Below are positions 7,881-52,823 of a stretch of 64,000 bases of DNA, piece by piece. The notes below the pieces were generated by a model, which searched no databases, had not been told where the DNA came from, and saw only the letters and a program-made list of their open reading frames with translations. A program made the translations under genes and the position numbers. Within the stretch, counting starts at the first letter, position 1. The number at the start of each line of letters is the position of its first letter. The stretch comes from a virus, in the UHGV virus genome UHGV-0279745; one strand, written 5' to 3'.

Positions 7881-8489
7881 ATGAACGAAATTACATTAGT
7901 TCGTTTTCTTGAAGCGATGCAAAATGCAGAGCGCTTTTCGCATACGCCTTTATTCATTGACTTAATGGAAGAAGAAGTAGAGGGATTCCTGGCATACCCT
8001 CGCTTACGGGAATATTTTAAACGTAAAACACCGACTGCTTACGAAAAGTTGGTTTACGCGCTTGAGAACAGTACAACATTGTTAACGTCACCTTTTAAGG
8101 CGTTGGAGGCTTTAGACCCGGCTGGTACCACAAGTATCCCACAACGTGTCGTGTTCTACTATATCGACCACGATCGAATCAAAGCCGATGTTGTTAACTG
8201 GATCTCTGAAAACGCAGTTCCTGAAACACGCACTTTTAATCTCTGTCCTGTAGAAGAAGGGTGGAAGGTCGGTAGCCACTATTCTTACCCGTACCAATCC
8301 ATTAAATCGCCGTTTTTATACCCGGTTTATCTGGATGACGTTACACCTGGAAATTGTATCCCGGTAACAAATCTGATCTGTACATTGACGATGGAAGTCT
8401 TAGCCACAAAGGCGGGACAGGTTTGGGTAGAAAACACGAAGAACGTCGATTATTGGACTTCAATGGGTTATCACCTGTACACCAAATAA
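7881..8489 (+). CDS. hypothetical protein
   Basis: ORF track; RBS aaaggaaaga. Confidence 0.65.
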   Translation: MNEITLVRFLEAMQNAERFSHTPLFIDLMEEEVEGFLAYPRLREYFKRKTPTAYEKLVYALENSTTLLTSPFKALEALDPAGTTSIPQRVVFYYIDHDRIKADVVNWISENAVPETRTFNLCPVEEGWKVGSHYSYPYQSIKSPFLYPVYLDDVTPGNCIPVTNLICTLTMEVLATKAGQVWVENTKNVDYWTSMGYHLYTK

Positions 8490-8492
8490 CGT

Positions 8493-8540
8493 TTGGGAGA
8501 ACCTTCGGGTTCTCCCTTTCTTTATTTTTTTTTCTTTTTA
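8493..8540 (+). terminator. intrinsic terminator
   Basis: gggagaacc-ttcg-ggttctccc hairpin plus long T-run. Confidence 0.7.
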
Positions 8541-8569
8541 CACCACACTCCGTCTTTATGGAGGTGGGT

Positions 8570-11074
8570 ATGCTAAAAGTTGAACGGATTATACTCAAAG
8601 GTTTTACGGGGATGGGATTACATGAAATTGAAACCTTCGATTTCACTATCCAGTCTCCGACAACAATTATCCTGGGTGGGAACGGCTGCGGGAAAACCAG
8701 TCTACTGTCTGTGTTCCTACCCTTAGCACCGGCTAAAACCGAATTCAGGGACGGCGGTTCTTACACAAACTACTGTTTAGTTGGCGATCAACGCTATCGT
8801 TTCAAAGTTGCCCGTAAAGGCAACTCTTTGGTTTGCGATATTGAGAACCTGACCACGGGGGCAAAGATCGTCGAGCAAGGTAATGCGAAAGTCTACAACT
8901 CCCGTGTTGAAGAAATCACAGGTATTACAAAAGAGATTAAAGAATTATTAAATGGTGAGGTGTTGTTAACCGATGCGGGAACCGAATTACGCCGCAAATG
9001 GTTTTACCGTTTAAGTACCTCTGATCTCACTTACGCGTTAGGGTTTTATCAACGTTTACGTAAAAACCTTACTGCCTTAAATGGGGGTATTGAAATCACC
9101 AGCCGTAAGATCGCCGAATTACGGACGCGTGTTATTGAGAACGAGGAAGAACGGCAGCAGTTAGCGACGAGATTAAAAGGTTTGGAATCGGATTTACGTG
9201 AACTGAACCGAGAAATCGAACAGTTACCAGGATTAAATCGTGCCGTCACCATCGAAACAATCCAAGCGTTATTAAACAGCTTGGGTCCAACCATCGACGC
9301 AATATTACAACATCGTGGTGGATTGCCTACTGATGAACAGATACTGGCCGCGCGACAAAACGAAGCGACGGCCCGCGAAGCCGTCGTGTCTACTGAAACA
9401 GAGGTATCGATGTTGAATAAAGACTTGTCGCTACTGATGGATGAGTCGACACGACAAGACTACCTGATGCGGAATCACGAAGGTCTCAAGAATACACTGG
9501 CACGTTTACGTGAGTTACTTACCAAATGGGACACCGAGCATCTCTTTCCGGGTTTATTTAACGACAACATCAATTTAGACCAACTTCGTGCGGCTACCGA
9601 CGCGCGTGTTTGGGGGCAACGGTTAGGAACAACACTGGACGCAATTCATTCAACCGAAAAACTTAATGTTTTGGAAGAACGGCTTCTGGTGATGGATCAA
9701 AAAACCGCAGGGTTGCGGGATAGACTCCAGCGAGTGGAGAACGTTTTACAGAATTTAAATCACGAACGTAATCACTACTTAGAAACAGCGGAAGTGGATT
9801 GCCCGCAGTGTCGGTTTAAGTTCCGTCCTGGCGTTACGCGTTCTTTACCTGAACTTGAGTCTTCGATTCGCGGACAACAACAGCAGCGCACGGAACTGCA
9901 AACGCAGTTAGAGACTCTATTACGCGATCGTGTTGAGTTAGAATCCGATGTAACTTATATGCGGCAGGTTCGTGAGATTGTACTGACGTATTCAAAGGAC
10001 CCGGTATTGAGCATGTTCTTTAAGCGTTTGCAAGAACGTAACGTTTTCACAGAATCACGTGAACAGTTCGGGAGTCTATGCGCAGCGTTTGACAGTGAGT
10101 TGTACTCTGCTATTGAGTACCATGAAACCCGTCAACGGTTAGTGAAGGCGGAAAAAGAATGGCAGGATGCCGTGGCGGCCGTTGGTAACGTCGATGGTGC
10201 TTTACAACAGAAAATTGCTTTCCAACAGTCACGATTAGGTAAAGCCACAGAGATGCTCTCAATGCGTCGTAGAGAGTACGAACTGGCTAACACGACACTT
10301 ACCTATCTGGTGAATGTTAAACGTGCTGTAGATGATTTCAGTGCGTTATTCGAACGGTTAGAGAGTGATGTTAAGGTTACGTTGACAAATACGGTCGTCG
10401 AGGAACTCTTACGTGCACGAGAAGGGAAGCTGGATGCTTTTACAACCGCACGCGAACGTTATCGTCAGATGGAAAATGAATTGAATCAGCTCAACAGTTT
10501 GGAACGCGAACTTGCTGACTTACAAGCCCAGCAATTCAATAACAAACTGATGATTCAAGCCTTCTCTCCAGAAAAGGGTGTACTTAGAAAGTATTTTTAC
10601 AACGCTATCGTTAGAATCACAGAGTTAATGACGCGTTATATCGAACAGGTCTGGACGTACCCCATGCGCGTTATGCCTTGTGACCTCACTGACGGCGATT
10701 TGGATTATACTTTTCCTGTCCAGCTAAAAACGCATCCTGAGCCTGTTCCTGACGTGCGTAAAGGGTCTAAGGCGCAGCGTGCGATATTTAATCTGATGTT
10801 CAGGCTGACTGCGTACAAAGCGCTGAAGTTGCATCAGTTTCCGTTGCTTTTGGATGAGCCTTCGGAAGGCATGGATGAGGAGCACCGTAACAACCTGGTC
10901 GGTTTTATTAAAACGTTAGCAAACTCGGGAGAATTTTCCCAACTGTTGGTAGTCTCCCACGAAGCCGAGGTTCATTCTAAACTTAATGAAGCATCGTACT
11001 GTGTCATCGAACCGGAAGGGGTGACATTGCCTGCGGTGTATAACGAAGGAGTAAAAATTGTTTATGCAAACTGA
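8570..11074 (+). CDS. SbcC/Rad50-like recombination ATPase
   Basis: Start moved to ATG 8570 (RBS GGAGGTGGG, downstream of terminator); Walker A GGNGCGKTS, long coiled-coil middle, CPQC zinc hook, C-terminal LLDEPSEGMD. Confidence 0.7.
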   Translation: MLKVERIILKGFTGMGLHEIETFDFTIQSPTTIILGGNGCGKTSLLSVFLPLAPAKTEFRDGGSYTNYCLVGDQRYRFKVARKGNSLVCDIENLTTGAKIVEQGNAKVYNSRVEEITGITKEIKELLNGEVLLTDAGTELRRKWFYRLSTSDLTYALGFYQRLRKNLTALNGGIEITSRKIAELRTRVIENEEERQQLATRLKGLESDLRELNREIEQLPGLNRAVTIETIQALLNSLGPTIDAILQHRGGLPTDEQILAARQNEATAREAVVSTETEVSMLNKDLSLLMDESTRQDYLMRNHEGLKNTLARLRELLTKWDTEHLFPGLFNDNINLDQLRAATDARVWGQRLGTTLDAIHSTEKLNVLEERLLVMDQKTAGLRDRLQRVENVLQNLNHERNHYLETAEVDCPQCRFKFRPGVTRSLPELESSIRGQQQQRTELQTQLETLLRDRVELESDVTYMRQVREIVLTYSKDPVLSMFFKRLQERNVFTESREQFGSLCAAFDSELYSAIEYHETRQRLVKAEKEWQDAVAAVGNVDGALQQKIAFQQSRLGKATEMLSMRRREYELANTTLTYLVNVKRAVDDFSALFERLESDVKVTLTNTVVEELLRAREGKLDAFTTARERYRQMENELNQLNSLERELADLQAQQFNNKLMIQAFSPEKGVLRKYFYNAIVRITELMTRYIEQVWTYPMRVMPCDLTDGDLDYTFPVQLKTHPEPVPDVRKGSKAQRAIFNLMFRLTAYKALKLHQFPLLLDEPSEGMDEEHRNNLVGFIKTLANSGEFSQLLVVSHEAEVHSKLNEASYCVIEPEGVTLPAVYNEGVKIVYAN

Positions 11075-20547: not shown

Positions 20548-22068
20548 ATGAAGAACGTTGATGTTGCAGTAATTTACACGGATGGTAGCCATTTGACCTC
20601 CCCGCTCGGTACAGGAGCGGGGATTCATGGATACTTATTTAATCGTGAAGCGATTGAGGATGGTCGGGTTTACCGTCATCCCTCTATTCCCGAGGGGATT
20701 ACGACGTCAGGATACCGCCAGATAAACAAGGATGAAAAACTTCCACCTTTACCAGAAACCGTGGAGTTTATTGACGGTGTTGTGCCTGTACCAAAAATGT
20801 CACACTCCGACGTTGCAGAACTCGTGGCTTTCCTGACCGTCTTCGAACACGCACCTTTCGTTGCCAAAAACTATGTTATCTATATCGATGCCTCTTACGT
20901 TGTCAACACGTATAACGATTGGATTGATGGTTGGGCTGCACGCGGTTGGCGTCGTGCAGACGGTACGCCTATTGCGAACTTGGAATTAATCCAACGGATG
21001 TGGGAGGTTAAACAGCGGTTAAAGAAAGAAGGGAAAGGTATTCGTGTCCTTAAAATTAAAGGGCACTCAGGACGCTATGGAAACGAGCGTGCCGACGAGT
21101 TAGCACGGAAAGGTTCAAGTATTTCGGCTCGAGGTGAGGGGTTAGACTATACACCGTATTGGTCAAAAGACGAGATGCCTGAGGAAGAACAGCAACCAGA
21201 AGTTGTTGGTGAAGGTGTCAATTTGTCTGCTTTTCCCGATATCTGTGTTACGAAGTTCTGTTACCCGATGGTGAACGAACCGCATCCCACTGTTACAGTT
21301 AACGGTAATAAACTTTATTACATGTTCGGTGGGAACCATGCAAAACAGAAGGACGATATCGTCTTCGTTGGTAAGTACATTCCAGATGCACAATTCTGCG
21401 TAATGTTTACCAAAGAACCATGGAACAACGTATACGAGTTGGTAAATACCCACTCTGCGAAAGCGTGGGAAGGGGTGCCCCGTTTACGTCAGTTTGATCC
21501 CATTGCCGTTGTTTTTAACTTATTCGTAAAACGTAAGAAGTTCGCAGAAGCCGCAGGTAACGGTATTCCTGTCGATCGGATGCATTTTAGCGAAGACAAA
21601 AACCTGTGGATGTTTGAAGATCTTTCGATTACACGAATTCTTCGTCCCGCGTTATTGTCTTATCGCTGCATTACGATTCGTGATGAGCTTGCAGGTTGGT
21701 TACGCGATGCCATGGAGGGGAAAAACTCAGTCGTAATGAACGACATTACTGACCTGCTTTACGATGAGAAAGGTAAGCCGAAGAAAGACTTTTATCGTAA
21801 CGTAGATAAAGGTTTTGACGTAACTATCCATATCCCTGGTAGTAAAAACAAGGTTAAAACCATCCTTACTCGAGGTATCGACATACCGACGCGTACGGAA
21901 ATCAACCGTATGAAAGAACCAGAAGGACGATTCTACGTGGCGGTACGGCGTCCAGAACGGCAGTATATCGAGTACGCGTTGGTTTATATTGGGGAAAAAT
22001 ATCATGGGTTGTGGTGTGGCTATTATTCAAACAAACGAATATTGACGGATAAGGAGCTTGAATGCTGA
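20548..22068 (+). CDS. RNase HI-domain protein with about 330-aa C-terminal extension
   Basis: N-terminal RNase H motifs YTDGS ... YIDASYV ... HSGRYGNERADELA; 506 aa total. Confidence 0.65.
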   Translation: MKNVDVAVIYTDGSHLTSPLGTGAGIHGYLFNREAIEDGRVYRHPSIPEGITTSGYRQINKDEKLPPLPETVEFIDGVVPVPKMSHSDVAELVAFLTVFEHAPFVAKNYVIYIDASYVVNTYNDWIDGWAARGWRRADGTPIANLELIQRMWEVKQRLKKEGKGIRVLKIKGHSGRYGNERADELARKGSSISARGEGLDYTPYWSKDEMPEEEQQPEVVGEGVNLSAFPDICVTKFCYPMVNEPHPTVTVNGNKLYYMFGGNHAKQKDDIVFVGKYIPDAQFCVMFTKEPWNNVYELVNTHSAKAWEGVPRLRQFDPIAVVFNLFVKRKKFAEAAGNGIPVDRMHFSEDKNLWMFEDLSITRILRPALLSYRCITIRDELAGWLRDAMEGKNSVVMNDITDLLYDEKGKPKKDFYRNVDKGFDVTIHIPGSKNKVKTILTRGIDIPTRTEINRMKEPEGRFYVAVRRPERQYIEYALVYIGEKYHGLWCGYYSNKRILTDKELEC

Positions 22069-25125: not shown

Positions 25126-26052
25126 ATGTATTTGTACAAAAGTAAAAAAGTAAAAGGTATTAAAGACTGCCTTAGACAAATGGGGTCTCAGCATCTTGAA
25201 AATGTAATGGAAGAAAACCGAATAAAGGAAAATCCTGTCTCGAAATGGATAAAAAAGAATCGTAACCATTTAACCAATGCCTTTATACCTTACGACGCTG
25301 AGTTAGGTCTCAAAGATCCCCGTTCCCTTCACGCACAAACATTAGCAATTGGATGGCTATACGGTGGTGCTTCCTTAATATCCAACCAAGCACTTAGAGA
25401 ACTTGTTTTCGAGACTGAGATGCCCAGTAAATTCCCTGAAGAATGGTTGGACTTTATACCTACCTGGACTGTGGCAATCGACGTAGGTAAAGAGGATGAG
25501 ACTTTCTTTCTCGGCTATCGAAAAAACGGGAATAGAAGGTTTATCATAATTGCTACAAATACTGATTACGGGTTAACAGAAGGCGTTACCACAATTGCCA
25601 CTTGTTCGTTAGAGCTTCGTAGTGCAGGAAACGGGCTTGTGGAAATCGACTATGCCGACGGTGTGGAGAACGAACAAGAAAAGATGCTATGGTTATCTCT
25701 GGCCAAAGCCGCTACTTCGATGATATTTCTGTGCACGCTAATCCCGCCCAATTACAGGGAGTCTTTTAATGATATTAAGTTCAAGGAAATCAAAAAGAAC
25801 GGTAGTATTAGTTACGACGTTAAACCTCGTGAACGCGATGTTAAGATAGATATCACGCCAGGACAAGTGAATTATCTAAAAGGGTTTAACACTGACTTGA
25901 AAACCATGCAGGGTATCAAACATGCTAAGGCTGCCCACATCCGTCGCGCTCACTGGCGCAGATATTGGGTCGGCCCTAGAAATGGTGAAAGAAAAAGAAA
26001 ACTTTGTTGGATTCCACCTACATTTGTCCGTGGCTACGTACCCCACAATTAA
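25126..26052 (+). CDS. hypothetical protein, tandem paralog family B member 1
   Basis: ORF track; C-terminal AHIRRAHWRRYW..W.PP motif shared with next gene. Confidence 0.65.
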   Translation: MYLYKSKKVKGIKDCLRQMGSQHLENVMEENRIKENPVSKWIKKNRNHLTNAFIPYDAELGLKDPRSLHAQTLAIGWLYGGASLISNQALRELVFETEMPSKFPEEWLDFIPTWTVAIDVGKEDETFFLGYRKNGNRRFIIIATNTDYGLTEGVTTIATCSLELRSAGNGLVEIDYADGVENEQEKMLWLSLAKAATSMIFLCTLIPPNYRESFNDIKFKEIKKNGSISYDVKPRERDVKIDITPGQVNYLKGFNTDLKTMQGIKHAKAAHIRRAHWRRYWVGPRNGERKRKLCWIPPTFVRGYVPHN

Positions 26053-26076
26053 GCTAAAGTGTTTAGGAGTATTAAA

Positions 26077-26976
26077 ATGACAACGAATAATAGACTTTAC
26101 GGGAAAGCGCTAAGACGCATGAGCGAACAAATAGAAAAGGCACACCAAACAATTCACGGATTAGATCAGTGTCGTTTTATTCGGTTCATTAACGAGCATA
26201 AACGTCAAATACCCGTAACGTTTATACCAGTTAAAGATCCGACCTATCGTGAGTATGGCGTTACAGAACAGATTCCCAGACTGATTAAGCAGTCTCTGGG
26301 ACTAGGATGGCAATACGCTGCTGTTGAAATCATCTCGGATGAAGAACTGATGGCGCTCTTAGCAAAAACTGAGAGACTAAAAAATATCCCGTACTTCTGG
26401 ATAGAAACCATCCCTTCATTTACTTTCTCGGTTACTGTAAATCTCGACGAAAGTCCAATCACGTTATTTATCGGAAGACGTCTTTACGAAGGTGAAGAAG
26501 TTCTCTTTGTGATGTCATGCGAAGAACATGGCGAGTCGGTATACATGGAGTTTGAGATTTACACGATCGACAAAAGTAATGATGATTTCGTGGAGTTAAA
26601 GCCGCTCCTTACTTCGGTTAAGGAGAATCAACGACTACTCGACGCGGTCTACATCGGGCTATATCTTTCATCACGAATTAAGCGAACCGAACGTGAGAAG
26701 AAAGAATTTCGCGGAAGGTCCATTCGTTATGTTCCTGATACAGAAATTCGCCCACGTAGTGAAGCAGTCGTTTTAGATGTAAGTCCGGTACAATGGGAAG
26801 ATATAGAGCAGCAACGCAAGGAAGGACACGAGGTTTGTTTGGCGATTTATTGCGCCGCACATATCCGTCGTGCGCATTGGAAGCGTGTATGGTGTGGTAA
26901 AATGTCAGAAATGCGCTGGCGCGAATGGCGATGGATAGCGCCGAGTTACATTTCTGGATTTTATCGTGGGAAATAA
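26077..26976 (+). CDS. hypothetical protein, tandem paralog family B member 2
   Basis: ATG 26077 with gtttaggagtattaaa RBS; C-terminal AHIRRAHWKRVW motif. Confidence 0.65.
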   Translation: MTTNNRLYGKALRRMSEQIEKAHQTIHGLDQCRFIRFINEHKRQIPVTFIPVKDPTYREYGVTEQIPRLIKQSLGLGWQYAAVEIISDEELMALLAKTERLKNIPYFWIETIPSFTFSVTVNLDESPITLFIGRRLYEGEEVLFVMSCEEHGESVYMEFEIYTIDKSNDDFVELKPLLTSVKENQRLLDAVYIGLYLSSRIKRTEREKKEFRGRSIRYVPDTEIRPRSEAVVLDVSPVQWEDIEQQRKEGHEVCLAIYCAAHIRRAHWKRVWCGKMSEMRWREWRWIAPSYISGFYRGK

Positions 26977-27875: not shown

Positions 27876-28175
27876 ATGAAAATCAAATTACTGACTCGAA
27901 ACACCACACCGCGTTTAGAACCGGAAATTTATCTGACGCCTGTTAAAAAAGGTCAGAACGGTAAACCTATTCAAGTTGGAAAAGTCTTGAGCGTAACGTC
28001 GTGCCCGAGCGGTAAACGTGTTATGGAACTGGAAATTGACGAGCGTAATAAACGCCGTTTCGAGTCTATTGAAAACCCTTATCCTGAAAATGCGGAAGAA
28101 GTTACTGAGTGGGTAGAGACCTACTTTGAATTCTGGCACAACCGCCGTCTTCTTCTTCCGACCAAGAATCGTTAA
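27876..28175 (+). CDS. hypothetical protein
   Basis: ORF track. Confidence 0.55.
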   Translation: MKIKLLTRNTTPRLEPEIYLTPVKKGQNGKPIQVGKVLSVTSCPSGKRVMELEIDERNKRRFESIENPYPENAEEVTEWVETYFEFWHNRRLLLPTKNR

Positions 28176-28190
28176 TTATCGGAGCGCTAA

Positions 28191-29687
28191 ATGGCAGGCC
28201 CAACTAAGCAAGTTATCGGTGAAGTAATTCGTCCACGTTTTAACGTTTACACCATCATGGATCATGCCTTAGGTAACTACGAAAAAGGTGAAGATGGTTT
28301 GTACTACCTTAACGGTGGTTTTGCCCACATCATGGGTTTCGCAGGTCGCGGTAACACTTTTAAATCCACCTTGTTAGATTTCTGTATCTTCCAAATCCTG
28401 CAACGTTATAAAGCAGAGTGGGGTTCTAAGTACGATACAGAAGTGTCCGCTGCCCTCGATCGTTTAGAAACTGGGTACATCTCTGCCATGAACGCCAACG
28501 GTATCGACGACGGAACATCTGTACTGGAGCTTATCCACGAAGGTCGTTATAACCTGGTCGGTTCTGACGTAATGCCTGGGGAACAGTATTACAGTGATTA
28601 TATTCGTGATGAAGTTGAAAAACGCTTCAAACAGTATATGTCTGGTAAGACCCGTGTAACACCGTTCCCCGATCCGGTTCGTCGTAAGTTAAAAGAAATC
28701 CTGGACCCCTGGCTTTATTCTATCGACTCCCTGTCAGAGTGGCATTCCAGTTCGCTGGAAGACAAACACGCAAAAACGGATATCGGGGATTCTGATCAGA
28801 ACATCCTGAACGCCCACGACGCACTGCAAAAATCGAATATGATGAGCCGCTGGCCGTCTGCGTTTGCACGCGGCGGTTTTTACATGGGCTTCGTGGCACA
28901 GATGGCCGATGACTCTGGGAAAGCGATGGCGGGTGGCCGACAGGCTCAAAAAGCAAATGCGAAAATTCTCGACGACGCCAACGACGATTTAAAATTCGCA
29001 GGTATTCCTCGACGTCAGCTTAGCTTTTTAACAAACTCTTTTATCGTCGCGACGAAATCAGGTGAGCTGAAGAAAGACCAGAGCTATAACGCACAGACCG
29101 GTGTTAACGAAGAACTTTATCCGACGTCACGTTCTAAAGCGATGAATGCGTCGGTAAACGACTTGAAGATTATCACCTTTACCCAGTATCGTGCGAAGGG
29201 TGGTCACACCGGTGTGAAATTCCAGATGATCTTCTCTCAGGAAATGGGTCTGTTGTATCACCTGAGCCTGTGGCATTATTTAAGTGACACGCTGAAGAAG
29301 TCAGACTTTGGTTTCACATCAAGCGGTAGTGGAGGTTCCATCAAAGAACTTGACATTCTACCTGGTGTGAAATTCCAACGCACGACAATCCGTGATATGA
29401 TTTCTGATAACGCACGCTTACGTCGCGCTTTAGAAATCACTGCGGCAATTGCGTATATGCAAAACAACTACCATCGTCTTGAAATGAAGTATCATCTCAG
29501 CATGGGTGAGATTTACAAACTGATTGACGAGAAGTGGGACTGGAATGAAATTCTGGATAACACGGTAGAATACTGGATGTTTAAAGACCAGGAAACCAAA
29601 GGCGGTAAACGTACACTGACTGCACGTACCATTCTGGGTATGGCTGTTGATGGGCTAGAACCGAAGTTCCTGACGAAAAAGAAATAA
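28191..29687 (+). CDS. RecA/UvsX-family ATPase (putative recombinase)
   Basis: Walker A-like FAGRGNTFKST and Walker B-like LYSIDSL, which I recall as resembling the T4 UvsX motifs; longer than typical UvsX. Confidence 0.45.
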   Translation: MAGPTKQVIGEVIRPRFNVYTIMDHALGNYEKGEDGLYYLNGGFAHIMGFAGRGNTFKSTLLDFCIFQILQRYKAEWGSKYDTEVSAALDRLETGYISAMNANGIDDGTSVLELIHEGRYNLVGSDVMPGEQYYSDYIRDEVEKRFKQYMSGKTRVTPFPDPVRRKLKEILDPWLYSIDSLSEWHSSSLEDKHAKTDIGDSDQNILNAHDALQKSNMMSRWPSAFARGGFYMGFVAQMADDSGKAMAGGRQAQKANAKILDDANDDLKFAGIPRRQLSFLTNSFIVATKSGELKKDQSYNAQTGVNEELYPTSRSKAMNASVNDLKIITFTQYRAKGGHTGVKFQMIFSQEMGLLYHLSLWHYLSDTLKKSDFGFTSSGSGGSIKELDILPGVKFQRTTIRDMISDNARLRRALEITAAIAYMQNNYHRLEMKYHLSMGEIYKLIDEKWDWNEILDNTVEYWMFKDQETKGGKRTLTARTILGMAVDGLEPKFLTKKK

Positions 29688-29731: not shown

Positions 29732-30031
29732 ATGCGTTATCAAACGGAGATTGTGGAACGCTTAAGTGAAGGATTGGCAAGTGTTAATTTAGAAACAGCG
29801 GCCGAATTTCGTGAAGCCTTCACTCACCCGTTTCCCGATCTGGAATCCTTTTGTTTAAAGGTCGCTGAGTATTACTCGAATCTATTAGTACGTTACGGGT
29901 ATGCGCCAGTACGTTCCGAACTTCCTGAAAACACGGAAGCTATCAGCTACTGGATTGACCTGCTTGAAGCAGAAACGTTATCCAATTTACGTAAGGCGGT
30001 AGACAATGAAACTCGAACCAGCGCGGCGTAA
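29732..30031 (+). CDS. hypothetical protein
   Basis: ORF track; RBS cctaaggagtc. Confidence 0.5.
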   Translation: MRYQTEIVERLSEGLASVNLETAAEFREAFTHPFPDLESFCLKVAEYYSNLLVRYGYAPVRSELPENTEAISYWIDLLEAETLSNLRKAVDNETRTSAA

Positions 30032-30674
30032 AAAGGCGGAAGCCTACGCCTTACAAATCTTAAAGTTGGTAGACCCTTCTGGCATTAATGCTGAAGCCGC
30101 GAAGAAAGCCTTCGCACGAATGACCGACGAACAGTTTAACCGACTTCGTAACGGTTTACCTATTTACAACCCGGTGGGAAGTAAAGTCGAAATTGACCAC
30201 CTGCGCAATATCGAGGTGTGCAAAATTCTCGGGGTAAACCTGGAGCAACGACTCTGGTTAACAGAACCAAAAACGGGTGTTTATCACCGTACTCGTTACC
30301 CTCACTTAGTCTTACGCTTGCCTGTCCGTCGTCAGACACAGATGCAAGAAAAGAAAATGGCGGTTGCGAAAAACGACAAAGTTCGCGATAAACTCTCCGG
30401 TCAAGTCGTCGGACCTTCCAAAGCATCCGGGGTGTCCTTCCCAGAGGCATACATCATGTATTCCGATGGTCACGACTGGACACTGAAAGAGTTCTTGTGG
30501 GCGCGTGGTGGTAACGACGCACTACAACGTGCTTTCTATCAATCTCTGCGCCAAACCGGTAAAGGGCGTATTGATTTGCCTGGAGCGGAGCGAACGAGTT
30601 CTAAAGCAACGCGTACGTGGTCAGCGTACCTAAAAGCGATGCATATCGGTAACAACATAGGCCATCCGTCATGA
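30006..30674 (+). CDS. hypothetical protein (start uncertain)
   Basis: ORF track; overlaps upstream gene by 26 nt in another frame. Confidence 0.45.
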   Translation: MKLEPARRKKAEAYALQILKLVDPSGINAEAAKKAFARMTDEQFNRLRNGLPIYNPVGSKVEIDHLRNIEVCKILGVNLEQRLWLTEPKTGVYHRTRYPHLVLRLPVRRQTQMQEKKMAVAKNDKVRDKLSGQVVGPSKASGVSFPEAYIMYSDGHDWTLKEFLWARGGNDALQRAFYQSLRQTGKGRIDLPGAERTSSKATRTWSAYLKAMHIGNNIGHPS

Positions 30675-44049: not shown

Positions 44050-47000
44050 TTACGCCGATTTACGACTAACGTCGAGTTGTGGCGCTGGTTGGGTTATTGA
44101 CACGTTACGTGACGCCGAACCCGGAGCGGTTGACGCAGGGTTAGCCGGTCCGTTTTGCATAGCCTGTGGTCGCTGACGAAGAATTGTTACAATCTCTTTC
44201 AGGTAGCCCGCAGACTCTTTTGCAACCGCCAGCTGCTGTACGCTGATCGGATCACCGCTGTTCACTGTAGAGCCGGTCTGTGCATCGGAAGTTACTGTTG
44301 GTGCAGGGCGGACTGATTTCTCCATCTGCTGTCTAGCACCTTCTTTTACTTTAGCAACATCCTCTTCGGCCAGGCCGTCAGCACGAGCATTTTGACCCAC
44401 CGTATCTACAACAACTGACGCATCACTCGGTGTCACGTCGCCGCCGGGGCTCGGCACCGCCGGACCACCGCCCGTCGCAGCTTTAATGTCATCGGCCCCC
44501 ATTGCACCTTTATCTGCTAAGGCTGTGTCACGATTCGCCTCGTTCGCAGCTGGCAGGTTATCTGCCGGGCCTGTGATGGACGGATCGTTAGCAGCGCCCG
44601 CAGCGATGGCTGGGGATGACGGCATTGGCGTTACGCCAGTCGTCAAGTCTTTCACCGATGCCTGATTGCCCGCAATTGCGTTTGTTCCTACTGCACCAAT
44701 CTTACCACCCATGATGCTGAGCACTTCATCCAAACTACGCAATTTTCCATTCTTGTAGAAAATTGTGCTGTTTGCCGCGATTTGATCGGCCGATGCACCA
44801 CGCGATGACGGACCGTTCGGATCACGCTTCCATTCTTGCAGGAATTTCTTACCGCCACCTTGTCCTAAGAAGTGGTAGAGGTAAACTGCCGCACCGGGAG
44901 GATCGATGCCACCTAAATCCTTTCTGGCTTTCTCGATATTGTCACGAATATGGCGGACACCAAGCAGGGCATTCGCCCACGGGTCATACTGGTCGGTTTG
45001 CGGGATACCGTAACGTCTAGCGTAAGCTTTCATCTGCTCACTCCAGGTACCGTTGATGAACTGGAACAAGCCAGCTGCAGAACTTCCTTTAGCTTTGATG
45101 CCGTATCTAAGTCCTGATTCTGCTTGTGCCATTCCCAGCGCTAACGCTGGAGGAACACCCATCATCTTCGCTACGTCTATAATCAGTGCTGCGACCGCAT
45201 TCAGGTTAGGCTTCAATCCGTCACCCAACGTTGAAATTGGATACTTAGCCGCTAACGTTTTATAATCACCGTCTTGCATCTCGCCAAGCTTCACACCGAA
45301 GTTACCGGTACTAAACGCGGCGTAATTCTTAGCCCCCATCTGACCATAAGCACCAGCCAAATCGTTTGGCGTGCCGTAATTACCACCGTCATTCGCTGCC
45401 GGTTGAAGCAGATCGCGATAAGAGGAGGAAGTATTCATCTGTTGCCGAGGTGGTTGGTCCTTCTCGTCATCGGTCAAGAACATCTGAGTCGCACGATCTT
45501 TTCGCTGCCAGTTCACACGGAAACCAGCAGAAGGCGTAGCACGCAGCGTTTTACGTACTGCCAAATCAGCTTCCTTAGACAGTTCTTTCAGGTTCTCTAA
45601 CTCCGTTGCAACTGAACCAGCGTCAGTGTTAGCATCACCCCCTAACGGGTTAAACGGTACCTCCCACACCGATTGGCGAATACCCCCTTTCAGGTTGTAC
45701 GCACCACGCATCATCAGTGCGATTTCATACAAGAACCCGCCTGTAACGCGTAGGTCCATCGGATCGGCAGCAGGGACATAACGTTTCACCCCAACCACGT
45801 ACGTCATGAAGACAGGTAAGAAGCGGTTATAGAACCAGTTCTTGTACCGATCTTCTTTTGGTCCACCAATAGCGTCAGGTGCAATCACTGCAATCGCACG
45901 TTTCCAGTCTCCTTTATACGTACAACTTTTCACATCAGTGTCTTGCAACACTTGACGTTCTAGGAGCGTATAGAGGTTACGGGTTGTTTGAGTAATGCTC
46001 ACCGCACCATAAGCTTTCAACCTTACAGATTCCAAATCACGGAGATCGGTTTCTTTAGGTAAGCTTCTCCAGTCAACTTGAACCTGAACTTGTTCGGTGC
46101 CGTCTTCCCAACCTTCAACCTTTGCAACCTCTTTGTTGCGTTCCGCATCCGCTTGAGCCAACGCTTGGGTCGATTCCGCCACAGAAGCAACTTTGTGTCC
46201 TTCGGCCACGCTGCCCGTAGCATTTACATCCTTACGTTTTTCATCACGACGCATGTTAATCGAACGAAGCACGCGTTCTTGTGCTTCAACGACTTCTTCA
46301 CCTGACAAAAACTCGGCCGGGGTAAACGTTACGAAATCCCACGCTTTAGAGAACCAACCTTGGTTAACCTTGCGGGGGTCTTCTAATGCACGGAATGCAG
46401 GTGCGTCTTTCGACATCTTCATTTTGTTAAAGATGTTCAACATGTCTGCTTTCGACACTTTCGCTGGATTACCGACGTCTGCTAACGCGATATCGTTATC
46501 CATCGATTTCAGTGCCGTAATCCAACGTAAGTAAATAGGCACAAAACGTTGTAGCATAAACGCACTAAACGCCAGCATTTCGCCTTTGTCTTCTACGTTA
46601 GTACCAAACCCTTCGGCCAGTTTCTTCACATCGTCACCAGACAAACCACGCAGCTGCGCTTGACCGTTCTCTGTATAAGAGATATACGGTTTCAAGTTGT
46701 CTTCTAAATAACGTGCTTTTGCACCGTCGTCGGAAGACCATTCATCATGGTCTCTAAAACCGTACTGCGCCAATCGCATGTTATCTAGGTACTGGGCATT
46801 TACACGATCTTTAGTTTTATAATAAAACCACGTTAACCCTGCGCCAGCGGCTACCAAACCGATAATCGGCCAGCCAACCGCAGTTACCACTGCAGATGCA
46901 GCTGTCGCGACAGCACTCACCGCAGGGACAGCCAAACGGGTCACGGCAAACTTACCAACGTTCCACAACGCTTTGCCTGCAAATCCGACCGGCTTGAAGA

Positions 47001-50000
47001 TTCCCCATTTTGCAAGTTTACCTAAGATTGAACCCACTGTGCCTAAAATACTCACGATTGGTCCTACCAACGGCAATCCTTTAAGGAAATCCATTACCCC
47101 ACGTTTACCACCTTTCTTCTCAGCCTCTTTCTTAGCCTTTTCCTCTTCCTTAGAACGCCGACGGCGTCGGAAGAACTGGAAGTAATCGCGTTTTTCATCA
47201 CTGGCAGGCGGCTTATTGCGTTGGCCGAACTTACTGAACATAGTTCTTAACAAACCTTCCGAAGCACCTGCTTTTTCCGCAGAATCACGCATGGTGTTAA
47301 ACCATGACATTTCCTGAAGATTAACCATTCGGTTCAGGCGTTCCAGTAAAGCTGACCCAACGCTACGGGCTTTCTGTTTCCCTTTATTAATCACACGTCC
47401 AGCGCTATCCGTTACGGTGTCTAAGTCTTCTTTTGCCGCATCGATGATACGTGTTTTAGACACCTTGCCTCTTGCGTAGATGTGCTGACGATAAAACTCA
47501 GCAACATCGTCATCGCGTCCTGCTAAACGACTCTCCATTCGATAACGTGTGCCGATATCGTAACGTGGGTCTCGGAAAGTATCGACCATATCGCTTGCAC
47601 GGCCACGGAAACGATCAAACCAACCACGTGCGGCACCGCCCCAACGAGAAAGACGACCACCTACCGCACTGCGATAACGGGACATTCTGTCACGCATCCG
47701 ACCACGCCAATCCCGGAACCCCTGAAAATGTTCACGGAACCCATCACGTATGTCTTTAGCACGTTGGAATAATCCTTTAACTGAGCTGGCTCCCGTATTC
47801 CGTTCCATCTGTTCTGTCCAGGTATCATCTTCTGGTTCACCTGGCAATCTCCGGTTAAGGAGTTTGTAGATACGGATTAAGATGTGGTTAGTTTTACGGC
47901 CGTTCGACCATGAGAACACACTAAACCCACCACCAGAACCCCCTTCCTTACGGTTCTGCCACCAACGTGTCAGAGGGTTATCAGAAGCCAACTCTTTGAG
48001 CTTCTCAAATCCGCGTTTTGCATTGTTCCACAAACGTGCTGGCATTCCCGTTACACGGGAAATCATGCTTTGTAAACGGGTTTTCTCTGCACCCTCTGGA
48101 ACCTCATTTAACCACTCGCGTGCTTTCTCGAACAACGAAGCCGCTTTAGGCGAAATGAAACCCAGAAGTTTCTTCGGTAAAGTCACAGCTTTGTTTACCG
48201 CCGTTCCTGCTTTCCCAGAAATGTACTGGAAAAGCGCTTGAACTTTACCACCTTTGTAGAAACGCAGTTTACCTGCGGCAGCCAAATCAGCAGCAGCTAA
48301 GATTAAATTACCCGCTTCATCGACGATGTCACGTCCCAGTTTAATATCGTCGAGAGTTTTAAGTTGAATCAGCTTCTCAGTTTTCGGGTCAGCCTGGTAA
48401 TATTCCCCAGCTTCTAAACGACTTCCTTGTAATACGACGTTGCCACGTTCATCGTAGATGTCGCGAACGCCTAAAACACCTTTACCGAAAGCTACGGCAG
48501 AATTCCAACCCGTCGATAATGTACCGGTTACTAACCCTTTCAGTCGGCTAAATACGCCGGGACCTTCGGAGGAACCGCCTGAGAATTTCCCACGAATAAA
48601 ACCACCTAATGCTTGTAGGCGATCTTTCCCACGTAGGAACAGATTCTTACCAAACCGTCCTACACCAGAACCGGTATCCCAAAGCACTCCAGCCCAGCGA
48701 CGTAACAAACCTGTCTCGCCTAGTACAATACGTTTGCGCTTACGACGACGTTTACGGCCCGATTCACTCGAACTTTCAGGTTCGTCGCCGTCATCACGAC
48801 TACCGCCTAAACTGGCTAGAAGAATACCTTCCTCATCCATGTTCTTAACGTGTTTGAGGATATCTTGCACGGTGCTAGATTCAGGCTGTTTACGTACGGC
48901 ATCAATCAATCGATCGAACTGTTGTTCCAGCCCGGCGTTCGTATCTGGACGGCTGCTTAAGAGCTCAACAAAGTTGGTAGATTTCTCTCCATAAAGTACC
49001 GCAGCGAGTTGACGGGCGCTTAAACCACGACCGCGACCACCTTTTCCACCACCACGTACGTTGGACAGTTCTTTGTCTTCAAAGCTCGGCTCTGCTCCTG
49101 CACCCATCCGACGCAAGTAATCACCCAACGCAGAACCATTTTGCAGCTTACGTTGAATCTCTTGCTCACGGGTTAACGAACGGCCAGAACGGGTCTTACC
49201 CATCGACAGGTCGTTAAATAGCGTATAGGGATCGTTAATGTCCTTATCGACTTCGAAAATGTCGTTCTTCGCATCGTATTTAAAAATACCGGAATCGCGA
49301 AGTGCGTTCTCGCCGTAAATCACAGACGCAGCATCAACCGTGTCTTGACGTGCACGAATCGTTGACTGAATAGCGGCTATTTTGTTTGAAATCGCATTAC
49401 TCAGTTCATGGTGACCGCCAACCAGTTCCGCAGAACGGGCTTCTAAAACACCCTGAATCGCTTCCACAGCGTTTGCGTTCATGTAACGATACATGTGCAT
49501 CGGGTCTTTCAATAAAGACCCTACATCGAACGCTTTCCCTTCCGAGGCACGAGACTCGATGTAGTCCGCTAACGCCTGACGTGTTTTCCTATCGAGCGTT
49601 TTATCTTTATCGATAAAGTCGACAGTGTCGTTGATGTACGTCTGTAAACGTTTGCGCTGATCGTCATTAGCAACGGCCTTACGTACACGATTACCAATAA
49701 CTTTGCGATCAACCATACCGCGCGTGGTCAGGTCGTATACCTGATCGTGGTGTTCGCCATACCCACGACGAATAGATTTGTTAATCTCGGACAGTAACGT
49801 CGGAATAACTTCGGTGATACTAAGGTAAGCTTTACGATCGAATTTCGCTGCGGCAGAAAGAGATTCCGCAGAGCGATCGTCTAATGCTAAGGTTTCGCGA
49901 CGTAGCGGGTTAACTAGCCCCAATTCGTGCATTAGTCGAAACAGATCAGCTAACGGACCGCTTGTTTCTCCCGCTATTGCCGAGTTAGAAATAGACGACA

Positions 50001-51174
50001 AATTTCCAAAGCCATACTTCGCCAACTGTAGGCGTTTCATGACTTCTGGGTTTTTCTCTAACTCGCCACGGGTCCAGTTCTGAAGACGCTCGATCTGGGG
50101 TTGTAAGAGACGTTTTGCTAACCAACCACCTGCAAAACCTGCCGCTTTATTACGCGAGTTTGTGTTACGACGGTCAGGAGACAACGATGAGCTGTCCGAC
50201 ATGTCAAAGTCATCTTCCTGAGCCATCCCTAGAACTTGTTCTAGAATCCCACGACCATCACTAAAGATGTTCGAGATTTTCTTCTTCGCGTTTTCGCGAA
50301 TCTGACCAATGAAATTATCTGCGTAGTGTAAGGGGTTCATCCACTCCGCAGCTTTACGTTTTACATTAGCCCAACGAATTTCAGAAAACTCTTCCTTCGC
50401 GTAGTCGGGTAGTGCCGTGTTCTTAACGATGGCTTCTAATGCCGGGGTGTTGCGTGCAAACTCGTCTTGTTTGAGTTTCGCAATATCCTGCAAAGCAAAC
50501 AATGTCCGATATTGCAGCTCTAACTGCTTACGCTGAACATTCAACAACACGCCACGACTTAAGCTAGTCGTTAAGTTGACGTCTTTTGCAATACCGATTA
50601 CGGTCTGGAACAGCGCGTCGGACTTCATGTCCTTAATCGTGTCGCGCAAGCGGTCTTCAACCATCCCCTCTTGCGCCTCACGTTGCTGGTCCGCTGTTTG
50701 CGGTGCACCTGAGAACACGCTGTCCAGCTCACGATCCATCATCGCTTGTTTAGGATCGTAATTCCCATAGTCGATTTGATCGTTACGTGCCCACTTGTCG
50801 ATTTTCCGTGTTACGGATTCCGGTAAATACCGTTTCAGTGTTGGGCCTAACTGTCTCGCTTGCATCTTAACGACGCGAGACGTCTTTTCAATCTCGTCTT
50901 TCGTATGGGCCAGAATGTCTTGACCTGCGGCTTTAACGTTTTGATAGCCTTCGTAGGCTTCTGCCGCAGGTTTAGGCATCCCTTTTAAAATAACCTGATC
51001 ACGTTTGTTTTCGGGCCAGATAGTCGACAACGCCGACTTACGGGCAGCACGAAATGTGTCCATGACCGGGTTACGCGATTGGTCTTGTTGACGAGGGGGC
51101 TCATCAAAATCGTCCCAGTCGTCCATGTTATCAAGATCGATTTCATCGAAATCATCTTTACCTTTTTTAGCCAT
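44050..51174 (-). CDS. giant virion-type protein (2374 aa) with transmembrane segments and C-terminal lytic transglycosylase (SLT) domain
   Basis: Uninterrupted 7.1-kb ORF; SLT motif GMAQAESGLRYG...GLFQF encoded about 44830..45160; Gly/Ala-rich hydrophobic helices about 46800..47090; acidic N-terminus. Confidence 0.8.
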   Translation of the reverse strand: MAKKGKDDFDEIDLDNMDDWDDFDEPPRQQDQSRNPVMDTFRAARKSALSTIWPENKRDQVILKGMPKPAAEAYEGYQNVKAAGQDILAHTKDEIEKTSRVVKMQARQLGPTLKRYLPESVTRKIDKWARNDQIDYGNYDPKQAMMDRELDSVFSGAPQTADQQREAQEGMVEDRLRDTIKDMKSDALFQTVIGIAKDVNLTTSLSRGVLLNVQRKQLELQYRTLFALQDIAKLKQDEFARNTPALEAIVKNTALPDYAKEEFSEIRWANVKRKAAEWMNPLHYADNFIGQIRENAKKKISNIFSDGRGILEQVLGMAQEDDFDMSDSSSLSPDRRNTNSRNKAAGFAGGWLAKRLLQPQIERLQNWTRGELEKNPEVMKRLQLAKYGFGNLSSISNSAIAGETSGPLADLFRLMHELGLVNPLRRETLALDDRSAESLSAAAKFDRKAYLSITEVIPTLLSEINKSIRRGYGEHHDQVYDLTTRGMVDRKVIGNRVRKAVANDDQRKRLQTYINDTVDFIDKDKTLDRKTRQALADYIESRASEGKAFDVGSLLKDPMHMYRYMNANAVEAIQGVLEARSAELVGGHHELSNAISNKIAAIQSTIRARQDTVDAASVIYGENALRDSGIFKYDAKNDIFEVDKDINDPYTLFNDLSMGKTRSGRSLTREQEIQRKLQNGSALGDYLRRMGAGAEPSFEDKELSNVRGGGKGGRGRGLSARQLAAVLYGEKSTNFVELLSSRPDTNAGLEQQFDRLIDAVRKQPESSTVQDILKHVKNMDEEGILLASLGGSRDDGDEPESSSESGRKRRRKRKRIVLGETGLLRRWAGVLWDTGSGVGRFGKNLFLRGKDRLQALGGFIRGKFSGGSSEGPGVFSRLKGLVTGTLSTGWNSAVAFGKGVLGVRDIYDERGNVVLQGSRLEAGEYYQADPKTEKLIQLKTLDDIKLGRDIVDEAGNLILAAADLAAAGKLRFYKGGKVQALFQYISGKAGTAVNKAVTLPKKLLGFISPKAASLFEKAREWLNEVPEGAEKTRLQSMISRVTGMPARLWNNAKRGFEKLKELASDNPLTRWWQNRKEGGSGGGFSVFSWSNGRKTNHILIRIYKLLNRRLPGEPEDDTWTEQMERNTGASSVKGLFQRAKDIRDGFREHFQGFRDWRGRMRDRMSRYRSAVGGRLSRWGGAARGWFDRFRGRASDMVDTFRDPRYDIGTRYRMESRLAGRDDDVAEFYRQHIYARGKVSKTRIIDAAKEDLDTVTDSAGRVINKGKQKARSVGSALLERLNRMVNLQEMSWFNTMRDSAEKAGASEGLLRTMFSKFGQRNKPPASDEKRDYFQFFRRRRRSKEEEKAKKEAEKKGGKRGVMDFLKGLPLVGPIVSILGTVGSILGKLAKWGIFKPVGFAGKALWNVGKFAVTRLAVPAVSAVATAASAVVTAVGWPIIGLVAAGAGLTWFYYKTKDRVNAQYLDNMRLAQYGFRDHDEWSSDDGAKARYLEDNLKPYISYTENGQAQLRGLSGDDVKKLAEGFGTNVEDKGEMLAFSAFMLQRFVPIYLRWITALKSMDNDIALADVGNPAKVSKADMLNIFNKMKMSKDAPAFRALEDPRKVNQGWFSKAWDFVTFTPAEFLSGEEVVEAQERVLRSINMRRDEKRKDVNATGSVAEGHKVASVAESTQALAQADAERNKEVAKVEGWEDGTEQVQVQVDWRSLPKETDLRDLESVRLKAYGAVSITQTTRNLYTLLERQVLQDTDVKSCTYKGDWKRAIAVIAPDAIGGPKEDRYKNWFYNRFLPVFMTYVVGVKRYVPAADPMDLRVTGGFLYEIALMMRGAYNLKGGIRQSVWEVPFNPLGGDANTDAGSVATELENLKELSKEADLAVRKTLRATPSAGFRVNWQRKDRATQMFLTDDEKDQPPRQQMNTSSSYRDLLQPAANDGGNYGTPNDLAGAYGQMGAKNYAAFSTGNFGVKLGEMQDGDYKTLAAKYPISTLGDGLKPNLNAVAALIIDVAKMMGVPPALALGMAQAESGLRYGIKAKGSSAAGLFQFINGTWSEQMKAYARRYGIPQTDQYDPWANALLGVRHIRDNIEKARKDLGGIDPPGAAVYLYHFLGQGGGKKFLQEWKRDPNGPSSRGASADQIAANSTIFYKNGKLRSLDEVLSIMGGKIGAVGTNAIAGNQASVKDLTTGVTPMPSSPAIAAGAANDPSITGPADNLPAANEANRDTALADKGAMGADDIKAATGGGPAVPSPGGDVTPSDASVVVDTVGQNARADGLAEEDVAKVKEGARQQMEKSVRPAPTVTSDAQTGSTVNSGDPISVQQLAVAKESAGYLKEIVTILRQRPQAMQNGPANPASTAPGSASRNVSITQPAPQLDVSRKSA

Positions 51175-51203: not shown

Positions 51204-52823
51204 GTGAATAAACTTAATTGGGTTGACTTTTATCTGCTCAATGTAAACAAGTCTCTTGTGTCGCGATTACGACCCGTCACGACCACGGATACTTTCCAGG
51301 GGTTAACAAAAAACTTTCACCCCGAAGGTCTTTACTCTACAGAGATATTTGGACTCACGGGGAGTGAAGCGCGAGACTCTACTTTCTCTTATATCGATAT
51401 TAAACTCGATATCATTTCGCCGACGGTGTGTTTGGCGTTATTCCAACTCAAACAACTCTACGAAGAAATTTGTTCTGGAAAACGCTACGCAACGTGGAGC
51501 GAAAAAGAAAAAGATTTCGAACCGGCCTTGCCGGGAGACCCAGGCGCAGATACCGGTTTTAACTTCTTCCTCAGTCACTATAACGATTTAAAACCTAAGC
51601 GTAACGAGTCCCTACAACGTGACGAAACCGTGGATTTCTTTTTGAAATTCCGTCCCGTTAGTCTTAGTCGATACGTTCTCGTGTTACCCGCGGGTTTACG
51701 CGATTTAGTAATTCGACAAGATGGTAGAGAACAGGAAGAAGAAATCGGCGGGATGTATCGTCGGTTGGTATCACTCGCCAGGGCGATCCCTGACCGAGCA
51801 ACCCGTGTTGAATTAACTAACCCCGTACGCTGGAAGCTGCAACAAACCTTCAACGATATCTGGATGTATTTCTTTAACATCCAAGACGGTAAAGGGGGTT
51901 TCCAACGTCGTAAAGTGACGTCTCGTAAATTAATGAACGGGACACGTAACGTACTGTCCTCATTCTCGACGGGGTCTAAGTGCATGGGTCGTGAAGACGC
52001 TATTCGTCCCACCGACACCAAAATTGGTTTATACCAGGGCTTAAAAGCGTTACTCCCCGTTGCGCAATACCAGATACGTGAACGTTACCTCGGTAACATC
52101 CGTGCTGGTGACGGCAACCTTTACGGCGTAAACACCAAAACCCTTAAACGTGAATTCTTGGAAGTAGGTGGTCGTGTATACGACACATTCACCACCGACG
52201 ATGGGATTGAATCCTTAATCAACCGAATGGAAGCTCGCGAGCTTCGCCATCAGCCGATTATGTTGGACGACACCCACTACGTTGCGTTGGTTTACCAAGA
52301 CACCAAACATTTTAAGGTGTTCTACGATATTGAAGAACTTCCTAAAACGTTTGACCGAAAATTCGTCCACGGTATGACGCTCGTCGAATTGCTTTATTTG
52401 TCGGGCTACGAGCTTTGGAACGATTATTTCGGTTTCGTTACACGTTATCCCGTTACAGGCCGAGGCTCGACGTATTCATCGACCATAAGATTGGAGACCA
52501 CCACATCATCTTTATACTTAAAAGAACTGGAAGATGACTGGGAAACTGAAAAACCCCGAGGGGCTATCAGCTACCCTGACCGGTCGGTTCCTACCTTCGT
52601 TGAGTCGATGGCACCACACCCTTCACGCTTAGGTGGCTTAGGGGGTGACTACGACGGCGATACCGGGTCGTTTAACGCGCCTATGTCCCAGGAAGCACTC
52701 GAGGAAAACCGGAATTGGATACACTCGAAAAACTACTGGTTCGATTCTGATGGGAACTTTAAAATCAATCCTATCAACAACGTGATTAAACGTGCAACGC
52801 AAGCGTTATTAAAGAACCCATAA
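51204..52823 (+). CDS. multisubunit RNA polymerase beta-prime-like subunit (N-terminal catalytic fragment), putative
   Basis: GTG start with CAGGAG RBS; aa 482-486 DYDGD (nt 52647..52661) followed by NAPMSQEALEE, matching the beta-prime NADFDGD...PL..EA..EA active-site region. Confidence 0.5.
   Translation: MNKLNWVDFYLLNVNKSLVSRLRPVTTTDTFQGLTKNFHPEGLYSTEIFGLTGSEARDSTFSYIDIKLDIISPTVCLALFQLKQLYEEICSGKRYATWSEKEKDFEPALPGDPGADTGFNFFLSHYNDLKPKRNESLQRDETVDFFLKFRPVSLSRYVLVLPAGLRDLVIRQDGREQEEEIGGMYRRLVSLARAIPDRATRVELTNPVRWKLQQTFNDIWMYFFNIQDGKGGFQRRKVTSRKLMNGTRNVLSSFSTGSKCMGREDAIRPTDTKIGLYQGLKALLPVAQYQIRERYLGNIRAGDGNLYGVNTKTLKREFLEVGGRVYDTFTTDDGIESLINRMEARELRHQPIMLDDTHYVALVYQDTKHFKVFYDIEELPKTFDRKFVHGMTLVELLYLSGYELWNDYFGFVTRYPVTGRGSTYSSTIRLETTTSSLYLKELEDDWETEKPRGAISYPDRSVPTFVESMAPHPSRLGGLGGDYDGDTGSFNAPMSQEALEENRNWIHSKNYWFDSDGNFKINPINNVIKRATQALLKNP

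Follow-up and report, generated by a model that had tools for sequence, protein, structure and literature searches.

A probable RecA-superfamily recombinase of a phiKZ/SPN3US-like jumbo phage, with family-wide insertions and a conserved C-terminal extension

The window analysed here, a 64,000-nucleotide stretch of the virus genome UHGV-0279745, carries on its plus strand a gene at 28191..29687 that encodes a UvsX/RecA-like protein of 498 amino acids (aa) plus stop. The gene begins with ATG, preceded at a distance of 6 nucleotides (nt) by a Shine-Dalgarno-like GGAG read from the sequence (28181..28184, +), and the stop of the upstream open reading frame (ORF) lies at 28175. The ATG at 28191 is well supported as the start because aligned homologues share the same MAGP beginning. 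The product is the orthologue of gp238 of Erwinia phage Asesino, gp216 of Salmonella phage SPN3US and gp152 (Nlp1) of phiKZ. We read the gene as encoding the RecA-superfamily recombinase of a jumbo phage that is phiKZ/SPN3US-like (chimallivirus-type), and put the probability of this reading, including the mechanism proposed below, at about 85%.

The 498-aa protein shares 81% identity with Asesino gp238 and likewise with SPN3US gp216, 77-80% with the Erwinia phage homologues annotated as 'putative UvsX', and 27% over 98% of its length with PHIKZ152 of phiKZ (expect value, E, 6e-31). A total of 281 phage records match it; those listed all come from phage genomes of at least 167 kb. Searched with a profile, 1.84 billion representative proteins yield 845 clusters at an E of 0.001 or less, with 505 at 1e-30 or less. 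The DNA around the gene is about 73% identical to Erwinia phages Asesino and phiEaH2/Stratton and to Salmonella phages STsAS and SPAsTU, and the gene order around it is that of Asesino gp236-gp241 and SPN3US gp214-gp219. Full-length homology and conserved genomic position together place the protein in the chimallivirus UvsX/Nlp1 (phiKZ gp152-like) family. It is a new but ordinary member of a family that is already known, named and partly characterised, its identity to described proteins being about 81%.

Three independent lines of evidence, namely a PHROG search, a structure search and a profile-profile alignment, agree on a RecA/UvsX identity. The best PHROG is phrog_97, 'UvsX-like recombinase' (E 1.1e-55, 190.8 bits, aa 10-468 on profile positions 43-351), which is also the best PHROG for T4 UvsX (9.4e-105) and for Escherichia coli RecA (2.6e-91). 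The AlphaFold (AF2) model, built on 25 homologues, reaches a predicted local distance difference test (pLDDT) score of 85.9 and a predicted template modelling score of 0.88, with only aa 242-263 below a pLDDT of 50. Its fold is that of RecA: in a Foldseek search of the PDB the top 50 neighbours are all RecA, among them 4twz (E 1.4e-9, probability 1.00, template modelling score, TM, 0.64 normalised on RecA), and the structural alignments span about 420 columns. In the viral library BFVD, jumbo-phage homologues come first, including the 'UvsX protein' of Aeromonas phage D6, followed by phage RecA/UvsX entries. An hhalign comparison of the 185-sequence family profile with a 10-sequence UvsX/RecA alignment yields 88% probability (E 3.2e-6) with the catalytic motifs in register. 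Smaller profiles align more weakly, 25 sequences giving 10% probability over 48 columns against T4 UvsX alone and 38% against the 10-sequence alignment. A preliminary description, made from the letters of this DNA, had likened the protein to RecA and UvsX; the match to phrog_97, the 50 RecA neighbours and the 88% hhalign probability bear this out, and the PHROG search finds no unrelated P-loop family ahead of the one that also ranks first for T4 UvsX and RecA.

The catalytic motifs of RecA and UvsX are conserved, as read from family alignments of 25 and 185 sequences, with residue equivalences taken from the hhalign profile alignment; all features below lie on the plus strand. The Walker A motif or P-loop, FAGRGNTFKST (aa 50-60, 28338..28370), contains the invariant residues G52, G54, N55 and K58, and K58 corresponds to K66 of T4 UvsX and K72 of E. 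coli RecA. Its form is the UvsX-type variant, in which an aromatic residue (Phe) precedes the Lys: GRGNTFKS, to be compared with GPSKSFKS in T4 UvsX and GPESSGKT in RecA. In the D82-T-E84 motif (28434..28442) both acidic residues are invariant, and the catalytic E84 equals UvsX E92 and RecA E96. The Walker B strand WLYSIDSL (aa 174-181, 28710..28733; LYSIDSL at aa 175-181) holds the invariant D179 and S180, equivalent to UvsX D143 and S144, the Asp being D144 in RecA. Strand beta5 (aa 230-238, 28878..28904), defined by the model and the alignment, ends in the gamma-phosphate sensor Q236, which corresponds to RecA Q194 and UvsX H195 and is His in most family members. R334-A-K336 (29190..29198), both basic residues invariant, matches the trans-acting pair K246/R248 of T4 UvsX and K248/K250 of RecA residue for residue. 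Taken together, K58, E84, D179 and R334/K336 are invariant in the 25 sequences and at least 85% conserved in the 185. In RecA and UvsX the basic pair reaches the ATP of the neighbouring subunit in the filament, and its retention suggests, by extension from the RecA literature, that the jumbo-phage protein works as a filament too.

The predicted DNA-binding loops occupy their expected positions in the alignment. The L1-loop region (aa 196-207, 28776..28811) has an IGDS motif like the IGDSHMG of RecA, with G199 and N204 invariant, and includes an insertion at aa 201-207. The L2 loop (aa 239-273, 28905..29009) is enlarged and basic; K258, L260 and K268 are invariant, and aa 242-263 are predicted to be disordered (pLDDT <50).

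The protein exceeds T4 UvsX by 107 aa (498 versus 391 aa; the reference sequence used agrees 100% over 391 aa with the T4 records), and the motifs lie correspondingly farther apart. From the Walker A Lys to the Walker B Asp there are 121 residues (K58-D179), against 77 in T4 UvsX (K66-D143) and 72 in E. coli RecA (K72-D144); E84 and D179 are 95 residues apart, compared with 51 in UvsX, and Q236 and R334 are 98 apart, again compared with 51. The ORF, both motifs quoted in the preliminary description, the excess of about 100 aa and the wider spacing were thus correctly reported there. Its further suggestion of inserted domains holds insofar as extra residues do lie inside the core, but they form about six dispersed loop, hairpin and helix insertions of 7-26 aa, accompanied by a conserved C-terminal helical extension, and no single inserted domain. 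In the profile alignment against T4 UvsX, 126 residues are inserted and 23 deleted.

Insertion 1 (aa 98-112, 28482..28526) adds 15 aa after the catalytic Glu and is variable, with 0.58 bits per position and 40% gaps by weight in the 185-sequence alignment. Insertion 2 (aa 148-173, 28632..28709) is a predicted beta-hairpin directly before the Walker B strand, with strands at aa 154-161 and 166-171; 22 of its residues are inserted (148-163 and 168-173), and P158, F159 and P173 are conserved. The L1-region insertion (aa 201-207) is 7 aa long relative to T4 UvsX and highly conserved at 2.05 bits per position, and the insertion at aa 249-267 makes L2 about 17 aa longer than in T4 UvsX. Between beta6 and beta7, insertion 5 (aa 297-326, 29079..29168) exceeds T4 UvsX by about 21 aa and has conserved P311, D324 and L325. 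A final insertion of 13 aa (aa 390-402) lies within the C-terminal domain. The hairpin, L2 and aa 297-326 average about 1.4 bits per position, each with near-invariant residues, while core segments range from 1.5 to 2.2. The 25-sequence alignment shows the insertions to be common to family members down to the phiKZ-like ones, and family length has a median of 485 aa, nearly all of the top 148 representatives falling between 460 and 520. The 107 extra residues are therefore family-wide elaborations, and a length of 498 aa is unusual only against T4 UvsX and RecA; inside its own family it is typical.

The C-terminal module consists of two parts. Its first half (aa 356-426, 29256..29468) runs helix-strand-strand-strand-helix-helix, which we take from the known RecA structure to be the order of the RecA C-terminal domain; by this order of secondary structure it is probably a domain of that type. 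The last 72 residues (aa 427-498, 29469..29684) form a family-specific helical extension that is modelled very confidently and is conserved like the ATPase core, with 1.99 bits per position versus about 1.9 (185-sequence alignment). Modelled alone, aa 356-498 reach a pLDDT of 93.3. The module gives no match to Pfam T4_UVSX_C.

Some members of the family are extended at the other end. In P0061 (773 aa) an ATP-dependent DNA ligase (aa 11-261, PF01068 plus PF14743) is fused N-terminally to the UvsX-like protein, and further N-terminal fusions occur in P0068 (716 aa) and in P0022-P0024 and P0026 (635-636 aa). Pfam finds no match for the extension of about 140 aa in P0022 or that of about 236 aa in P0068. 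Five sequences considered as paralogues, P0030, P0031, P0034, P0038 and P0039, were rejected: they combine high HMMER scores with tiny BLAST coverage and contain 20-aa (60-nt) blocks of the orthologue in reversed order. They come from Salmonella phages SPFM8, SPFM12, SPFM15/5, SPFM1 and SPFM9 (records LR5359xx), where they are labelled 'hypothetical proteins', and look like a database artefact, with sequence lines reversed in the public records, rather than biology.

Compared with phiKZ gp152, Asesino gp238, SPN3US gp216, RAY gp150 and PCH45 gp72, the protein belongs to the same length class (about 455-500 aa) and has the same insertions, C-terminal extension and gene neighbourhood. Only sequence divergence separates it from these relatives, known as the 'UvsX/RecA homologue' of nucleus-forming jumbo phages; the subclade of the window has Gln as sensor where most have His, and a slightly longer insertion 1. 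With T4 UvsX (PDB 3IO5) it shares the PHROG, the aromatic residue before the P-loop Lys, a YD(S/T)E motif around the catalytic Glu, the IDSL of Walker B and the K/R pair after beta7, and by analogy the same role in recombination-dependent replication and repair would be expected. It differs from T4 UvsX in its greater length, in lacking a match to either Pfam family and a predicted N-terminal helix, and in its C-terminus, which reads as basic (KFLTKKK) where the T4 tail reads as acidic. By analogy with its relatives it would also act inside a protein-bounded nucleus and need import, and none of the window neighbours scanned is a UvsY-type mediator. Bacterial RecA proteins (E. coli, Mycobacterium tuberculosis and others) are the best structural neighbours, at E 1e-9 and a TM of about 0.64 on the target, and resemble it in the IGDS of L1, in the Gln at the Q194 position (in the window subclade) and in the topology of the C-terminal domain. 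Identity to them is only about 12-13%; the 498-aa protein is 145 aa longer, its P-loop lacks the second Gly (FKS versus GKT), and it carries the extra C-terminal helical extension.

The window is part of an SPN3US/Asesino-like jumbo phage. Besides split genes for the RNA-polymerase beta subunit, it carries those for an RNase H-like ribonuclease, a thymidylate synthase, an SbcC/Rad50-like protein and a tail protein of 2374 aa, a set that is consistent with the phiKZ-like jumbo phage type, going by what is generally known of such genomes. The nearest sequenced phages in the phage collection searched are about 81% identical in protein and about 73% in DNA, and on these values the window appears to belong to a phage species that the collection does not include. 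An identical 498-aa protein (P0001) is already public in an ENA metagenome assembly, on an 11.3-kb contig, and its cluster has 123 members sharing at least 90% identity.

Several neighbours bear on DNA and RNA metabolism. The 906-aa ORF at 8354-11074 (+) matches phrog_77 (E 8e-92), which describes the SbcC-like component, of Rad50/T4 gp46 type, of a palindrome-specific endonuclease; because the TTG listed as its start overlaps the preceding ORF at 7881-8489, the true start is uncertain. Its product would be a likely partner of the recombinase in end resection. A few genes upstream of the recombinase, 20548-22068 (+) specifies a ribonuclease of 506 aa, part of which is RNase H-like (phrog_3265, phrog_531), in a placement that resembles that of phiKZ gp155 (Nlp2, an RNase H-like nuclear import cargo), three gene numbers from gp152. 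Three plus-strand genes (30006-30674, 51204-52823 and 52833-56999) match PHROGs for beta-type subunits of RNA polymerase (phrog_3233, phrog_2986 and phrog_3148). A multisubunit RNA polymerase split in this way is typical of phiKZ-like phages; in SPN3US, the counterpart of the first gene carries the annotation of a virion structural protein. PHROG scans for a mediator of the UvsY or DprA type found none among the nine ORFs flanking the recombinase gene or among ten large ORFs of the window; the PHROG matches of the nine are only to families of unknown function or to an RNA polymerase subunit.

Two further loci stand apart from these. At 25126-26052 and 26059-26976 (both +) lie tandem paralogues of 308 and 305 aa, both assigned to phrog_6160 (function unknown), with a shared conserved end motif AAHIRRAHW(R/K)R.W ... 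W(I)(P/A)P. At the corresponding place Asesino has a single gene of such size (927 nt, gp235) and SPN3US none, and from these gene sizes the pair may be a lineage-specific duplication. On the minus strand, 44050-51174 is an ORF of 2374 aa in which some regions resemble tail fibres and transglycosylases (phrog_3201, phrog_4067); the ORF sits in the stretch of highest G+C content in the window, where the GC skew is negative.

Published work on the family concerns localisation, import and loss of the gene. A GFP fusion of Asesino gp238 is found in the phage nucleus (PMC11724907), and RAY gp150 is likewise nuclear (10.1101/2023.02.24.529968). The 'RecA' proteins of phiKZ and PhiPA3 enter each other's nuclei, and phiKZ RecA-sfGFP tends toward cytoplasmic foci before import (PMC11087766). 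As Nlp1, phiKZ gp152 brings EcoRI into the nucleus, its import requiring Imp1 and a dedicated factor, Imp2 (10.1101/2024.03.27.586873). Deletion of nlp1 from phiKZ results in slow replication, small plaques, a competitive index of 0.05 and sensitivity to NucC, a nuclease of the cyclic-oligonucleotide-based antiphage signalling system (CBASS), which the authors read as a loss of recombinational repair (PMC12676376). The UvsX of PCH45 is nuclear and non-essential, and has been used for delivering a transposase into the nucleus (10.64898/2025.12.19.695335). The foci of phiKZ RecA-sfGFP and the deletion phenotype are indirect hints at recombinase biochemistry.

In the proposed mechanism, the recombinase would be translated in the cytoplasm and then imported into the phage nucleus, a step made probable for the 498-aa protein by its 81% identity to Asesino gp238. 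It would bind ATP through the UvsX-type P-loop (K58) and polymerise on single-stranded phage DNA via loops L1 and L2. ATP would be hydrolysed with E84 acting in cis and R334/K336 acting across the subunit interface. The resulting filament is predicted to catalyse homology search and strand invasion, and so to support recombination-dependent replication and the repair of broken phage DNA, as T4 UvsX does. A role in DNA recombination gains support from the ligase fusion in P0061 and from the genes for an SbcC/Rad50-like protein and an RNase H-like nuclease in the same window.

Several observations weigh against this recombinase reading. Pfam RecA (PF00154) and T4_UVSX_C (PF21134) match neither the 498-aa protein nor the distant family members P0045, P0048 and P0036, whereas T4 UvsX passes both (47.1 and 132.5 bits); precomputed Pfam domains are also absent from all 48 database homologues. 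Sequence searches of the PDB find nothing relevant, whether the single protein or the 25-sequence profile is used, and a fold search with aa 356-498 alone returns no PDB neighbour (best E 4.9). The N-terminal polymerisation helix of RecA and UvsX is not evident in the model: in its place stands a short segment (aa 1-24, 28191..28262, +) with conserved MAGP and RPxFN, of which aa 1-16 are coil, with no helix predicted before aa 21, though a low-stringency hhalign run places aa 9-24 on UvsX 12-27. Finally, the literature consulted gave no biochemistry (ATPase, strand exchange, filaments) and no structural study for any member of the family. Since both Pfam families fail, the family is counted as a deep, divergent branch of RecA/UvsX that is invisible to Pfam, and it is too divergent for detection by a sequence-only PDB search.

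If the likeness to UvsX were superficial, the protein could belong to a different functional class of RecA-fold ATPases; candidates are helicases of the DnaB/gp4 type, proteins of the KaiC/RadB/Sak4 type, and clamp or packaging ATPases. The sole hint from Pfam, AAA_25 at E 0.23, would suit such a class, DnaB-like helicases do occur among the weaker BFVD matches, and RecA itself weakly matches DnaB and primase-helicase PHROGs. The helicases in BFVD appear only at an E of about 1e-6, roughly 1000-fold weaker than the all-RecA top 50 in the PDB, and at a TM of about 0.3. Recombinase-specific features (the IGDS of L1, the disordered basic L2, R334/K336 and the RecA-like topology of the C-terminal domain) and a phiKZ deletion phenotype that mimics T4 uvsX leave this alternative very unlikely. 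Nearly as improbable, in our estimate, is a relic core, the protein being retained mainly as a structural or adaptor part of the phage nucleus or of its import pathway and carrying out hardly any ATP-dependent recombination, or none. The family does serve experimentally as an import tag, a dedicated factor (Imp2) is required in phiKZ, the C-terminal extension matches the core in conservation and lacks any known relative by fold, and the gene is dispensable in PCH45. Against this, K58, E84, D179, the Gln/His sensor and R334/K336 show little or no variation in 185 diverse sequences, which argues for selection on the ATPase chemistry; loss of the gene in phiKZ leads to a DNA-replication and repair phenotype (NucC sensitivity), and the ligase fusion of P0061 points toward DNA transactions.

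Another alternative concerns the extra length alone, namely that loops have expanded neutrally and that the insertions, though tolerated, serve no specific function. Insertion 1, poorly conserved and missing from about 40% of family members after weighting, fits neutral expansion, and the predicted disorder of the L2 insertion is in keeping with it. The conserved hairpin and the C-terminal extension do not fit: the other insertions and the extension are family-wide, with near-invariant P158, P173, N204, K258, L260, P311, D324, L325, W451 and T458, and the extension is as conserved as the core. For the extra length as a whole we regard neutrality as rather unlikely, though worth taking seriously. 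More doubtful still, and offered tentatively, is the proposal that the family-specific additions form a surface that licenses nuclear import through Imp1/PicA-type and Imp2-type factors, or that binds a chimallivirus-specific mediator replacing UvsY. The main candidates for such a surface are the extension at aa 427-498 and the beta-hairpin at aa 148-173.

As an annotation the result carries little weight, naming one more copy of a known recombinase. Its added value is modest and lies in the map of how the family differs from T4 UvsX and RecA, of which we found no equivalent in the literature. The map is useful for import studies because the family is a standard cargo for studying and exploiting phage-nucleus import, and telling the core from the family-specific parts narrows the search for the surface recognised during import. 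If the additions did form such a surface, the extra 100-odd residues would be an adaptation that lets a RecA-type recombinase function inside a protein-bounded compartment, and the import code of the phage nucleus could then be tested directly on a protein whose core is well understood.

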